A DNA stretch of 12,326 nucleotides from a virus (IMGVR_UViG_2693429700_000004), one strand, 5' to 3'. Positions 1,977 to 5,206 are shown, counted from the stretch's first letter. Notes: generated from the letters alone by a model not told the origin. Made by a program: numbers and translations.

Positions 1977-2417
1977 GTAACGCTGCGAGCGTTACAAGGT
2001 GAAAACAAATGGCTTCAAACTGGATAAAGCTCGAGGTTATTACGCCGGATAAGCCGGAAATATTCAGGCTTGCTGAGATTCTGAATATTGATCCAGATGC
2101 CGCATTAGGGAAGGTTATTCGCTTCTGGGCATGGGCGGATCAACAAATGATAGACGGTAATGCAGATTGTAACGCTCGCGGCGTTACAAAAAGTGCAATA
2201 GATCGCATCACTTTTATGGCTGGTTTTGCTGATGCGTTAATTCAGGTTGGATGGCTGATCGAAAATGACGGTGGGCTTTCTCTACCTAACTTTGAACGTC
2301 ATAACGGGAAAAGCTCTAAAAAACGGGCGGTTACAAACGAGCGAGTAACAAAAATACGCGAACTGCAACGAAAAGGTAACGCTGCCAGCGTTACACAAAC
2401 GGATCAAAAAGCGTTAC
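1977..2417. repeat. palindromic iteron-like repeats (GTAACGCT-N3-AGCGTTAC) around and inside the initiator gene: candidate origin or autoregulatory sites
   Basis: Copies at 1977-1995 (8-bp arms), 2169-2187 (one mismatch) and 2376-2394 (8-bp arms); a related GTTAC-N10-GTAAC at 2330-2349; a half-site AGCGTTAC at 2410-2417. Confidence 0.5.
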
Positions 2418-2791
2418 CAGAGGAAGAGGAAGATATAAATACTGATCTCCCCCTAAATCCCCCTCGCCAAAAACGAGCGTCTAAAAAATTCGAGCCGGAG
2501 GCTATCGAGCTGCCTGACTGGTTGCCGGAAACACTCTGGCATGAGTGGTTTCAGTTCAGGCAGGCATTGCGAAAACCGATTCGAACGGAGCAGGGCGCTA
2601 ACGGGGCGATACGGGAACTGGAAAAATTCCGTCAGCAGGGTTTTACACCTGAGCAGGTGATTCGACACAGCATCGCCAATGAATACCAGGGCCTGTTCGC
2701 GCCGAAAGGTGTTCGGCCTGAGACGTTGCTCCGACAGGTTAACACCGTCTCGTTGCCGGACAGTGCGATCCCGCCAGGCTTCAGGGGGTAA
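2009..2791 (+). CDS. phage replication initiator, lambda O-like / YdaU-like
   Basis: 260-aa ORF directly upstream of a DnaC-like loader; AAGGTGA RBS. Gene contains the repeated palindromes listed above, as lambda O contains ori. Assignment is by synteny and architecture. Confidence 0.65.
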   Translation: MASNWIKLEVITPDKPEIFRLAEILNIDPDAALGKVIRFWAWADQQMIDGNADCNARGVTKSAIDRITFMAGFADALIQVGWLIENDGGLSLPNFERHNGKSSKKRAVTNERVTKIRELQRKGNAASVTQTDQKALPEEEEDINTDLPLNPPRQKRASKKFEPEAIELPDWLPETLWHEWFQFRQALRKPIRTEQGANGAIRELEKFRQQGFTPEQVIRHSIANEYQGLFAPKGVRPETLLRQVNTVSLPDSAIPPGFRG

Positions 2792-2797
2792 CGGACC

Positions 2798-3544
2798 ATG
2801 AAAAATATTGCGACAGGCGGTGTTCTTGAACGTATCCGTAAGCTGGCTCCGCAGCATGTAACCGCGCCGTACCGGACAGTGGACGAGTGGCGAGAGTGGC
2901 AGCTTGCAGAAGGGCGAAAACGTAGCGAGGAGATCAACCGCCTGAATCGTCAGTTGCGGGTGGAAAAAATTCTGAATCGCTCAGGCATCCAGCCGTTGCA
3001 TCGTAAATGCTCGTTTGCAAATTACCAGGTGCAGAACGACGGCCAGCGATACGCGTTAAGCCAGGCGAAATCCATCGCCGATGAACTGATGACCGGGGGT
3101 ACAAATTTTGCGTTCAGCGGAAAACCTGGTACCGGGAAGAACCACTTAGCGGCAGCTATCGGAAATCGCCTGCTGAAAGATGGCCAGACAGTGATTGTGG
3201 TTACTGTGGCTGATGTTATGAGTGCCCTGCATGCCAGCTATGACGACGGACAGTCAGGCGAAAAATTTTTGCGGGAACTGTGCGAAGTGGATCTGCTGGT
3301 TCTTGATGAGATTGGCATTCAGCGCGAGACGAAAAACGAGCAGGTGGTACTGCACCAGATTATTGATCGACGGACAGCGTCGATGCGTAGCGTGGGAATG
3401 CTGACAAATCTGAACTATGAGGCCATGAAAACATTGCTCGGTGAGCGGATTATGGATCGCATGACCATGAACGGCGGACGCTGGGTGAATTTTAACTGGG
3501 AGAGCTGGCGTCCGAATGTCGTCCAGCCAGGAATTGCGAAGTAA
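2798..3544 (+). CDS. ydaV: DnaC-like replicative helicase loader (AAA+ ATPase; YdaV-like)
   Basis: 248-aa ORF with Walker [16 protein letters not shown] and Walker B-like LLVLDEIG; sits 6 nt after the initiator gene. Confidence 0.85.
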
Positions 3545-3566
3545 TTTTTACCGGGAGAAAAATTTA

Positions 3567-4328
3567 ATGGAGACTGTTTTTGACGCACTGAAAGCAATGG
3601 GAAAAGCCACATCCATAGAACTTGCTGCGCGACTTGATATCAGTCGTGAAGAGGTACTGAACGAGCTGTGGGAACTGAAAAAAGCTGGTTTTGTTGATAA
3701 AACCGCGTACACCTGGCGCGTGGCTGAAAACAACGTTCAGCAGGAACAGTCAGCGCAGGCAGAACTGCCGGAAGAAACCACCACAGCAACAGTAGCGAAA
3801 ATCTCAGAGTGCGATTTAACCGCAACGATTGAACAACGCGGACCACAAACGGCTGATGAGCTGGCTACATTGTTTGATACCACATCACGCAAAGTGTCTT
3901 CAACGCTGGCAATGGCAATCAGCAAAGGTCGTCTGATTCGCGTAAATCAGGGCGGTAAATTTCGTTACTGCATACCGGGCGATAATTTACCAGCAGAGCC
4001 GAAAGCAGCATCGGTAGCGGAAACTGATGGTAAAGCCTTTCCTCAGCCTGCATGTGTTGCGTTACCAGTACAGGAAGCTGCAACACAGGAAGATATTAAA
4101 ACAGAAACGATGGCGGACATTGTGCAGTCGCTGCCATCGTTTACTGCAACGCGATCTGATGATTTGATTTTGCCATCGCTGCATTTGGCAAACCGCGAAC
4201 TGCGTCGGGCGAAAAATCATGTCCAGAAGTGGGAGCGTGTCTGCGCCGCGCTGCGTGAGTTGAACAAGCACAGGGATATTGTACGACAGATTACTGATTC
4301 TTCCCGCCATGTTGCATCGGAAAAGTGA
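3567..4328 (+). CDS. phage protein with two winged-helix-like segments (function unknown)
   Basis: Start chosen at ATG 3567 ([13 protein letters not shown]...) with GGAGA RBS; the track's upstream start at 3516 would overlap the DnaC-like gene. wHTH-like stretches: [30 protein letters not shown] and [29 protein letters not shown]. Confidence 0.55.
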
Positions 4329-4343: not shown

Positions 4344-4736
4344 ATGGCAAAAGTATTTACACAAGAAGAGCGGGAAGAAGTGAAGGCGCGCATTGTGGAA
4401 TTCGTGCGCCTGAGCGGACGAGAAACTTTTCGACAACTGGCAGATAAAACGGGTGTCAGTAAGACCGCTATTCGTCGTTTATCTGGTGCGCTTGCGGCCA
4501 GTGGTGATGTCTGGCTCTCTGGTTGCGGGGTATTTCCATCAGAGCAGGCGTATCGCGTATGGCGTAAGACACCGGAGAAGGCTGCTGACCCGACACTGAT
4601 TCGAAAGTTACCTGACGGAGAAATACGTCGTTACAACAGACGGCAGAACATAATTTGTCGTGAGTGCCGCCAGAGCGAAGTTATGCAGCGTGTGCTGGCG
4701 TTCTATCGGGGAAACTTTCAGGAGGTGATGTTGTGA
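4344..4736 (+). CDS. hypothetical phage protein with putative HTH
   Basis: ATG at 4344 with GGAGG RBS 5 nt upstream (the track start at 4329 is TTG). HTH-like TFRQLADKTGVSKTAIRRL; C-terminal CRECRQ. Confidence 0.5.
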   Translation: MAKVFTQEEREEVKARIVEFVRLSGRETFRQLADKTGVSKTAIRRLSGALAASGDVWLSGCGVFPSEQAYRVWRKTPEKAADPTLIRKLPDGEIRRYNRRQNIICRECRQSEVMQRVLAFYRGNFQEVML

Positions 4737-5206
4737 GTGAGTCGGCTACCATTCTCGACATGTGCTGTGGCAGTCGCATGTTCTGGTTTGATAAGAATGA
4801 CGAACGGGCGATATTTAGCGATATCAGAAAAGAAGAGCACACATTGTGTGATGGACGACGCCTGATTATCAGTCCTGACCTGATAGCAGATTTTCGAGCA
4901 TTACCATTTGCAGACGCATCGTTTCCGGTTGTTGTATTCGACCCTCCGCATCTTGAGCGTGTTGGTGATAACGCCTGGATGGGAAAGAAATATGGACGGC
5001 TGAATAAAGATACCTGGCGAGATGATTTGCGGCAGGGATTTAAAGAAGCCTTTCGTGTGTTGTGCCCACGCGGCGTTCTGATTTTTAAATGGAATGAAAC
5101 GCAAATACCTGTTCGCCAGATATTGGTACTGACCGACAGAAAACCTGTTATCGGTCAACGAACAGGAAAAAACGATAAAACCCACTGGATTATTTTTATG
5201 AAATAG
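4733..5206 (+). CDS. small SAM-dependent methyltransferase, probable phage orphan DNA N6-adenine/N4-cytosine MTase
   Basis: Motif I-like ILDMCCGSR, then catalytic motif IV DPPH (VVVFDPPHL) about 65 residues later. Start is either GTG 4733 (GGAGGTGA RBS, overlaps upstream stop) or ATG 4763. About 150-158 aa with no partner restriction gene. Confidence 0.6.
   Translation: MSESATILDMCCGSRMFWFDKNDERAIFSDIRKEEHTLCDGRRLIISPDLIADFRALPFADASFPVVVFDPPHLERVGDNAWMGKKYGRLNKDTWRDDLRQGFKEAFRVLCPRGVLIFKWNETQIPVRQILVLTDRKPVIGQRTGKNDKTHWIIFMK

Follow-up and report, generated by a model that had tools for sequence, protein, structure and literature searches.

Palindromic sites upstream of and inside the initiator gene of a Rac-like prophage as parts of a putative theta-type replication origin

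Described systems and the prophage locus

The principle that a replication origin lies within the gene of its own initiator is already familiar. In phage lambda, four 18-bp iterons and an adjoining AT-rich stretch of 38 bp make up oriλ, which is located inside the O gene (PMC3349717), while in SPP1 the AB boxes and the unwinding element of oriL are located inside gene 38 (PMC5737612). Another system to be considered is the oriJ region of the K-12 Rac prophage with its gene ydaU; in the literature that we found, oriJ is mentioned without being mapped to sequence. The host itself has DnaT, which acts in origin-independent restart and for which we know of no sequence-specific site, and in the host dnaT-dnaC operon a DnaC-type gene follows dnaT, as is also the case for the locus studied here.

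The window, by which we mean the whole 12,326-base stretch of DNA that was analysed, belongs to a Rac-like lambdoid prophage of E. coli, of which it covers the immunity and replication region. It carries a repressor gene on the minus strand (754-1173), a Cro-like gene (1270-1512), a YdaT/CII-like gene (1509-1931), the initiator gene on the plus strand (2009-2791, 260 aa) and, also on the plus strand, the gene of a DnaC-like helicase loader, YdaV (2798-3544; Pfam IstB_IS21, NCBIfam PRK12377 at 1e-152, PHROG 50), which is presumed to be the partner recruited by the C-terminal domain of the initiator. A DUF1627 gene, which comes after the loader in the gene list, is also present in the replication region. 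A first-pass annotation of this DNA had placed palindromic repeats 5' of and inside a replication initiator gene, and the gene at 2009-2791 indeed matches PHROG 2509, 'replication initiation protein', at 3.8e-87. On the whole, we consider it probable that these palindromes are sites for a dimer of the initiator, and that they form, together with the sequence 3' of the third one, a theta-type origin of the prophage.

In the initiator, a predicted DNA-binding domain (about aa 1-122) is connected to a DnaT-like domain (aa 168-260) by a disordered, charged linker. The 260-aa protein has no match in Pfam and NCBIfam, and the N-terminal domains of six homologues have no match in Pfam either (E <= 0.01), while homologues match PF17948. 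The match of PHROG 678 ('O-like') to the initiator is confined to residues 93-234. Over its last 93 residues (168-260) the protein is similar to the C-terminal domain of E. coli DnaT (2ru8, with 2ru8_A as the best match, and 9zbt; E = 1.7e-4), and the alignment takes in the terminal PDSxIPPGFRG motif; for full-length DnaT (9zbt), only chain residues 92-179 are covered, against residues 168-260 of the query. The structure model has a confident helical domain with a beta hairpin at residues 11-100, followed by a long basic helix and the disordered linker. Its fold is winged-helix-like, and structure searches return weak, generic winged-helix matches only; helix 101-122 is modelled with low confidence (pLDDT 51-61). 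The basic helix KSSKKRAVTNERVTKIRE (codons 101-118; 2309-2362, plus strand), which follows a PNFERHNG motif, is our candidate for the recognition helix. In phage records the gene is labelled only as hypothetical or as replication initiation protein.

Compared with lambda, the locus is alike in its layout, in that the repeats are located in the part of the initiator gene coding for the junction of the N- and C-terminal domains, a stretch that is AT-rich, modestly so in the window, comes directly 3' (PMC3349717), and the helicase-loader gene is next. The resemblance to the lambda origin inside O, which had been pointed out in the first-pass annotation, is borne out. There are differences from lambda, however: no relation of the N-terminal domain to O is detected at the sequence level (no match to Pfam Phage_rep_O); instead of four tandem 18-bp iterons there are half-sites of 6-7 bp together with dyads about 200 and 400 bp upstream; the unwinding region of the family carries a conserved (GAGAA)n polypurine tract; and the C-terminal domain is DnaT-like, with a loader that is DnaC-like and not P. 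The palindromic form of the sites, which had been regarded as unusual, is not among the differences, since the lambda iterons are also internally symmetric. In addition, lambdoid origins are exchanged in modular fashion, and the N-terminal domain and the repeats move as one module in lambdoid phages as well as in the family of the window.

SPP1 would share with the window an origin located inside the gene of a non-AAA+ initiator (G38P in SPP1) and repeats, bound by this initiator, beside an unwinding element, which is a putative one in the window, and it also has loader and helicase genes downstream (PMC5737612), whereas the window protein has no Pfam match to the G38P families, and host range, repeat type (AB boxes in SPP1) and partners are different. 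The likeness to E. coli DnaT is in the C-terminal domain with its PDSxIPPGFRG motif; in the window this domain is fused to an N-terminal domain predicted to be sequence-specific, while the N-terminal domain of DnaT is unmatched. Finally, the K-12 Rac gene ydaU has the same position in the prophage, the same type of C-terminal half, the AT-rich stretch and the neighbours ydaV and ydaW, but its N-terminal domain is DUF1376, and the repeats it carries are TGTTCAAACA units, in tandem at distances of 12-33 bp. DNA homology of the K-12 Rac prophage to the window gene is found in the 3' part only, from about 2430-2534 on.

Palindromic sites and the predicted origin core

The sites have the dyad form GTAACGCT-N3-AGCGTTAC. 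With up to three mismatches allowed, the pattern GTAACGCTNNNAGCGTTAC has exactly three matches in the 12,326-base window, at 1977-1995 (0 mismatches), 2169-2187 (1 mismatch) and 2376-2394 (0 mismatches), and no further copy elsewhere in it, while shuffled sequences have 0.04 matches on average and none of 200 shuffles reaches three. The spacings of 192 and 207 bp agree with the intervals of roughly 200 bp given in the first-pass annotation. Among 80 viral loci, no extra copy (up to 2 mismatches) is detected within 3 kb of the gene. Of the 10 copies of the half-site 7-mer GCGTTAC in the window, 7 are within 1977-2417, where 1.36 would be expected. As the half-sites are inverted, the palindromes suit a dimeric binder, in accordance with the earlier proposal. 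Direct repetition is present at the half-site level only, with a spacing of 11-12 bp, and tandem direct repeats of 17-22 bp, as in plasmid-type iterons bound by Rep monomers, are not found among the sites.

Site 1 (1977-1995) is a perfect dyad, GTAACGCT-GCG-AGCGTTAC, and non-coding; it is located 3' of the ydaT-like gene, whose stop is at 1931, and 5' of the ATG of the initiator gene at 2009, directly beside the AAGGTG ribosome-binding site, and is probably an auxiliary initiator-binding site. Site 2 (2169-2187), GTAACGCT-CGC-GGCGTTAC, has one mismatch and lies within the coding sequence of the N-terminal domain, where it encodes C-N-A-R-G-V-T. A degenerate extra half-site, GTAATGC (2157-2163, plus strand), is found 12 bp 5' of site 2; it belongs to a 12-nt duplication (peptide GNAD/CNAR) present only in the Enterobacterales branch, and close relatives have the exact GTAACGC at its position. 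Site 3 (2376-2394), again a perfect dyad (GTAACGCT-GCC-AGCGTTAC), is at the end of the N-terminal domain with the peptide G-N-A-A-S-V-T, and is probably the centre of the putative origin core. Besides three dyads, two variant or half sites had been reported. One of them, the terminal half-site GCGTTAC (2411-2417, plus strand, encoding A-L-(P)), is kept in nearly all homologues, including distant ones, and therefore stands; the other, at 2329-2349 (GCGGTTAC ... GAGTAAC, peptide RAVT..RVT), is rejected, since the homologues have RALT there without GTTAC. The only terminator-like match at a dyad (site 3, minus strand) was judged to be an artefact of the palindrome, with a weak T-run and a location inside the gene.

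The sites had also been described as dispersed, which holds for the copies at 1977 and 2169, but not for site 3, as it sits in a cluster of half-sites at 2364-2417. This cluster, the polypurine tract and the AT-rich stretch following it make up what is likely the origin core (2364-2447). The half-sites around site 3 are at 2364, 2376, 2388 and 2411, about one helical turn apart, and the layout is one of three to four half-sites GTAACG(C), two rightward and then two leftward. The leftmost, GCAACGA (2364-2370, plus strand), is degenerate and 12 bp 5' of site 3; its counterpart is exact in many homologues, for example GTAACGCaaaaaGTAACGC in two of them (L014 and L029). Many homologues also have one to two more half-sites 3' of site 3, at 11-12 or 23 bp, and after the half-sites comes directly CC(A/T)AGAGAAGAGAAGAGAAG, that is (GAGAA)n, and then a short AT-rich stretch. 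This probable core at 2364-2447 was absent from the first-pass annotation.

In the window, the polypurine tract AGAGGAAGAGGAAGA (2419-2433, plus strand) directly 3' of the terminal half-site is the local form of (GAGAA)n and the longest homopurine run of the 12.3-kb window, and the sequence after it is TATAAATACTGATC. Among 46 diverse loci, 35 have the longest homopurine run of their whole ~6-kb locus at 20-50 nt after site 3, with GAGAA enriched 43-fold in that stretch. Of 50 loci, 33 contain the 12-mer AGAGAAGAGAAG, with each of the three frames represented, and the tract is kept in epsilon15 in spite of a wholly changed half-site. In any frame (GAGAA)n codes only for E, K and R, which gives a flexible linker, and its five-base period does not fit coding periodicity. 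The tract is probably part of the predicted unwinding element. It encodes a charged linker (the acidic EEEE in the window), and part of its conservation could thus be at the protein level.

The short AT-rich stretch AAGATATAAATACTGATC (2430-2447) is probably both the end of the predicted unwinding element and the junction between mosaic modules. At +30 to +75 from site 3, the AT content goes up by 17-18 points (mean of 45 loci). In the window the AT content after site 3 is modest, with 0.60 against a gene mean of 0.50, and the most AT-rich 40-mer of the gene is at 2059 rather than after site 3; this modest local rise is the main weakness of the unwinding-element reading for the window sequence.

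Judged from the extent of homology, module junctions fall at this AT-rich stretch, as the sequences shared with the K-12-type ydaU and with a variant bearing an insertion start or stop at 2430-2447. Phage vB_EcoS-683R6 (L003) is homologous to the window in the flanks of the gene, in the AT-rich stretch and in the half coding for the C-terminus, while the N-terminal domain is DUF1376 (8.7e-26 for its K-12-type protein), a domain for which the window initiator has no match in Pfam. The dyads of the window are replaced there by 4-5 tandem TGTTCAAACA units, 12-33 bp apart, and the array ends just 5' of the shared AAGATnTAAAnACnGATC-CCCCCTAAATCCCCC. A third variant, found in six loci (L007 and L139-L143), has about 350 extra bases that start exactly after ACTGATCT. 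Since the N-terminal domain and the repeats are swapped together, with the AT stretch and the C-terminus shared, the predicted DNA-binding domain travels with its own repeats. In some homologues of the N-terminal domain, it is the DnaT-like C-terminus that is replaced by unrelated ones. The genes downstream are also various: a DnaC-like loader in the window, PAN70, phiPSA1, Cimandef, RPZH6 and Carin1, a DnaB helicase in three Planctomycetota loci and Raharianne, and a lambda P-like protein in Pseudomonas nitroreducens.

These results bear on the possibility that the dyads are operators for autoregulation only, bound by the initiator or by another regulator and acting as a transcription roadblock or by blocking the ribosome-binding site, with the origin located elsewhere. 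Many initiators repress their own genes, site 1 abuts the initiator Shine-Dalgarno sequence, and the intragenic sites could serve as roadblocks. However, the promoter scan gives nothing promoter-like near site 1. The counterpart of site 1 is found in Enterobacterales homologues at -32 to -44, with fixed half-sites and a varying central triplet, while it is missing in most other lineages, which keep the two intragenic sites. Moreover, the conserved cluster of half-sites, the polypurine/AT tract and the module junctions at this tract would all be left unexplained. We therefore regard autoregulation as the sole role of the dyads as unlikely, and the hint in this direction that had been taken from the most upstream copy is not supported, although autoregulation may be an added function in Enterobacterales.

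Conservation across phyla and concerted change with the initiator

With the N-terminal domain alone as the query, about 4,200 clusters (50% identity, E <= 1e-10) are obtained from at least five phyla. Loci were fetched from genomes of Enterobacterales, Pseudomonas, Burkholderiales, Planctomycetota, Verrucomicrobiota (including Akkermansia), Ignavibacteria and Acidobacteriota, the homologues having 31-71% protein identity, and among the named phages with the domain are epsilon15, TL-2011b, Xanthomonas CP2 and Pseudomonas PAN70. Counted from the start codon, the dyad of nearly all fetched loci is at two fixed intragenic places, +136 to +160 and +328 to +391, and among close relatives its half-sites are invariant, while the central three bases are free to vary. 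An unbiased scan of viral contigs for exact 19-mers detects 168 sites in 120 stretches, and 161 of them are within or beside a homologue of the domain, with two of the other seven at contig ends; the enrichment of the 19-mer at this kind of gene, which the first-pass annotation had proposed as a check, is thus found. Among the protein families of 46 diverse loci, the initiator alone is present in all, the next most shared families being antisense shadow ORFs of the initiator gene, HTH regulators (14) and DnaC-like proteins (11).

Variant half-sites also occur, and within one locus all sites are of the same class, including the unpaired extra half-sites. The GTCACG class includes seven loci, the GTTGCG and CTAACG classes one locus each, the GTCCGC-N7-GCGGAC class epsilon15, phiPSA1 and RPZH6 as well as Carin1 (at the site-3 position only), and the GTAGACG-N6-CGTCTAC class the Ralstonia phage Raharianne. 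The terminal half-site shifts together with the palindrome, to GCGTGAC, GCGCAAC or GCGGAC. On the protein side, residues T109 and V113 of the basic helix change with the half-site class. As raw counts from few independent lineages and without phylogenetic correction, [T/S]109 combined with V113 is associated with xTAACG (40 of 41 loci), K or Q at position 113 with GTC (11 loci) and M at this position with GTT (two loci). One locus of the GTCACG class, L039, which has the dyad at site 2 only, combines a helix and a dyad of GTCACG type with a remainder of the protein like that of the GTAACG group. Taken together, the shared family, the concerted half-sites and the tracking by helix residues argue that the initiator itself is probably the binder of the sites.

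The same comparison weighs against a different binder, be it a host factor, the YdaT/CII-like regulator, the repressor or YdaW, and a role outside initiation such as partition, packaging or recombination. Several DNA-binding proteins are encoded nearby, and the stretch just 3' of the sites coincides with module junctions, both of which would be consistent with such a role. None of these candidates, however, is common to the 46 diverse site-bearing loci as the initiator is; the flanking genes vary widely among loci; the half-site class follows residues of the initiator; and no DnaA-box or IHF consensus is present in 1800-2900. For a host factor in particular, it is unlikely that it would be common from E. 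coli to Planctomycetes and yet switch its specificity among related phages. We consider this explanation, as a whole, very improbable.

Slightly less probable still, in our estimation, is that the palindromes act as mRNA hairpins, with an 8-bp stem and a 3-nt loop, which govern stability, ribosome pausing or translation of the initiator. Each site does fold as predicted, moderately well, with -10.9 to -13.5 kcal/mol and z-scores of -2.2 to -3.0, and the symmetric changes described above would keep the pairing too. On the other hand, it is the sequence, beyond pairing, that is kept across phyla, and all sites of one locus have a sequence class in common. G-U is not enriched at unpaired positions, with 15 cases against 68 other mismatches, or about the random share. 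The extra half-sites, which are unable to pair because their spacers are non-complementary, still shift with the dyad. In addition, the covariance models of Rfam 15 have no match in 1700-2900 at E <= 1.

The position of the sites in the reading frame shows at which level they are constrained. Across lineages, site 2 is always in frame 1, while site 3 is in frame 0, 1 or 2 depending on the lineage, giving xNAxSVT, VTxxAL or SRxxRD; since site 3 is read in three frames, it is the DNA and not the peptide that is conserved. Of the 48 loci compared at site 2, 39 use GTT for Val, whereas the share of GTT in the remainder of these genes is 31% (p = 8e-12); the bias persists when only loci with at least 55% G+C are taken, with GTT in 22 of 30 and a share of 27% outside the site (p = 4e-7). 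Asn is preceded by an NGT codon in 46 of 48 loci. In the GTCACG lineages, each change of Asn to His at site 2 is paired with a synonymous change of GTT to GTG in the partner arm, and in epsilon15-type genes the upstream dyad is at +65, with the peptide motif missing at its usual place. From the comparison of sequences, then, the constraint on the sites acts at the DNA level.

The reading that the DNA repeat simply follows from a repeated, conserved peptide, G-N-A-x-S-V-T, with no role of its own at the DNA level, for which it could be said that sites 2 and 3 of the window encode the same type of heptapeptide and that the motif is conserved at site 2, is refuted by the frame and codon data just given (three frames at site 3, fixed synonymous codons, matched GTT-to-GTG changes, the displaced epsilon15-type dyad) together with the non-coding site 1, and we give it practically no weight. 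The first-pass annotation had stated that the repeats are in frame and impose a recurring tripeptide on the protein. In the window they are in frame (CNARGVT and GNAASVT), but a peptide is imposed in all lineages at site 2 alone, the frame at site 3 being different from lineage to lineage. Part of the protein, G-N-A-x-S-V-T, thus appears to be dictated by the protein's own putative binding site, and the locus clearly illustrates how a cis element and a coding sequence constrain each other over deep evolutionary time.

Proposed mechanism and its meaning

The preferred reading, a prophage origin bound by its own initiator, is put forward because the sites are beyond chance, conserved at the DNA level, concerted in their changes, linked to the gene and located beside replication genes. 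We infer that the initiator binds the sites, that the duplex unwinds at the polypurine/AT tract, that the sites are connected by looping and that the whole has origin activity. In this scheme, the half-sites clustered at 2364-2417 would be contacted by the N-terminal domains of an initiator dimer, with the basic helix (aa 101-118) likely reading the half-site. The duplex would then open at the polypurine tract of (GAGAA)n type and the short AT-rich stretch, and through its DnaT-like C-terminal domain the protein would bring the DnaC-like loader YdaV, together with host DnaB, to the open region. Auxiliary sites would be provided by the two dyads farther 5', at 2169 (about 200 bp from the core) and at 1977 (about 400 bp), which probably aid a looped or wrapped nucleoprotein complex. 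The looping between sites is a conjecture; a spacing of ~200 bp would permit it, but in the case of sites 2 and 3 this spacing adds no independent support, because it is set by the length of the domain.

A further and more tentative suggestion, which we hold to be possible but somewhat doubtful, is that the locus represents a widespread and undescribed origin-initiator cassette of about 450 bp, sufficient by itself for recognition of the origin, in which the DNA coding for the domain holds the domain's own sites, residue 113 reads base 3 of the half-site (V with A, K/Q with C, M with T), and the linker-coding (GAGAA)n tract is a new type of unwinding element. In the literature on oriJ and Rac, on ydaU and ydaV, on a replisome organiser with DnaT and on the epsilon15 origin, we found no sequence-level description of the origin. 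The DNA-binding domain, the half-site layout with its two upstream dyads, the (GAGAA)n tract, the conservation of intragenic sites across phyla and the link between helix and half-site all appear to be undescribed.

The present finding overturns nothing established. For a very large family of temperate phages and prophages, including Rac-like E. coli prophages, epsilon15, Xanthomonas CP2 and Akkermansia prophages, it offers a testable candidate origin and possibly a rule of recognition. The concerted changes of half-sites and helix residues can be seen as a natural experiment on DNA recognition, and they may also allow the design of orthogonal origin-initiator pairs. If the cassette suggested above is real, origin specificity would become predictable, and perhaps reprogrammable, for thousands of phages, from Proteobacteria to Planctomycetes and Akkermansia. 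As for the distribution of the module, the whole initiator gene is present in about 680 complete E. coli genomes, and a weak hint at origin activity is that, among circular records filed as plasmids, two have the module, both of which are phage-like circles.

Repeat array of the K-12-type ydaU gene

In Escherichia phage vB_EcoS-683R6 (locus L003), we identified four to five tandem TGTTCAAACA units within the DUF1376-type YdaU gene, which is of the K-12 Rac type (L003:2294-2400), with spacings of 33, 33 and 12 bp and with one copy inverted. The array immediately precedes the AT-rich stretch that this phage and the window have in common. At the sequence level, the tandem array is a plausible candidate for oriJ of Rac.

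Insertions, polypurine tract and Dam sites near the AT-rich stretch

Some close relatives bear an insertion of about 350 bases, found at 1556-1926 in locus L007 and at about 3446-3800 in loci L139-L143, and it starts exactly after ...ATAAATACTGATCT, where the AT-rich stretch ends. The initiator gene with the insertion is annotated in RefSeq as two pseudogene fragments in L007, and that of L139 may give a longer protein by read-through; the protein P0081 (376 aa) may be such a read-through form of the insertion-bearing gene. The polypurine tract (window 2419-2433) differs in repeat number among close relatives when the window is compared with L007 and L139, being AGAGGAAGAGGAAGA versus AGAGGAAGAGGAAGAGGAAGA, a difference of one additional GAGGAA unit, in frame. 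Two Dam sites (GATC), at window 2402-2405 and 2444-2447, enclose the polypurine tract together with the last half-site, and positions 1900-2900 of the window have 8 GATC, about twice the roughly 4 expected for 1 kb with equal base frequencies.

Variation and distribution of the dyad sites

In the region at window 2151-2187, members from Enterobacterales have a 12-nt duplication at site 2, the second 19-bp dyad, with the peptide GNAD|CNAR, the other lineages having GNAxSVT. The extra direct half-site 12 bp upstream of site 2 is the product of this duplication, and the non-coding upstream dyad (site 1) is present only in members with it. In addition, two viral contigs each have one further exact 19-mer (L199:1368 and L274:1561), with about 4.5 kb between it and the initiator gene.

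Antisense frames and genomic neighbourhood of the initiator gene

Long stop-free frames are seen on the minus strand opposite the N-terminal domain (window 2009-2400), as in the same region of 42 of 46 diverse loci, and all-against-all BLAST of the 46 grouped them as 'conserved' families; the frames are shadows of the conserved initiator gene and do not speak for antisense genes. The initiator is also found on two circular records filed as plasmids, E. coli pE16EC1016-8 (L289) and the 41-kb Pusillimonas sp. T7-7 'plasmid' (L290, NC_015459.1). The latter, typed rep_cluster_1580, has CII, NinB and Rha genes; it looks like a complete phage and could represent a phage-plasmid or else a phage that has been excised. 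In two distant phages, epsilon15 (L279:342-1511) and Vibrio phage 1.211.A (L287:204-1208), the end of a C-5 cytosine methyltransferase gene meets or overlaps the initiator gene start, and a reading frame at window 4664-5206 is weakly methyltransferase-like.
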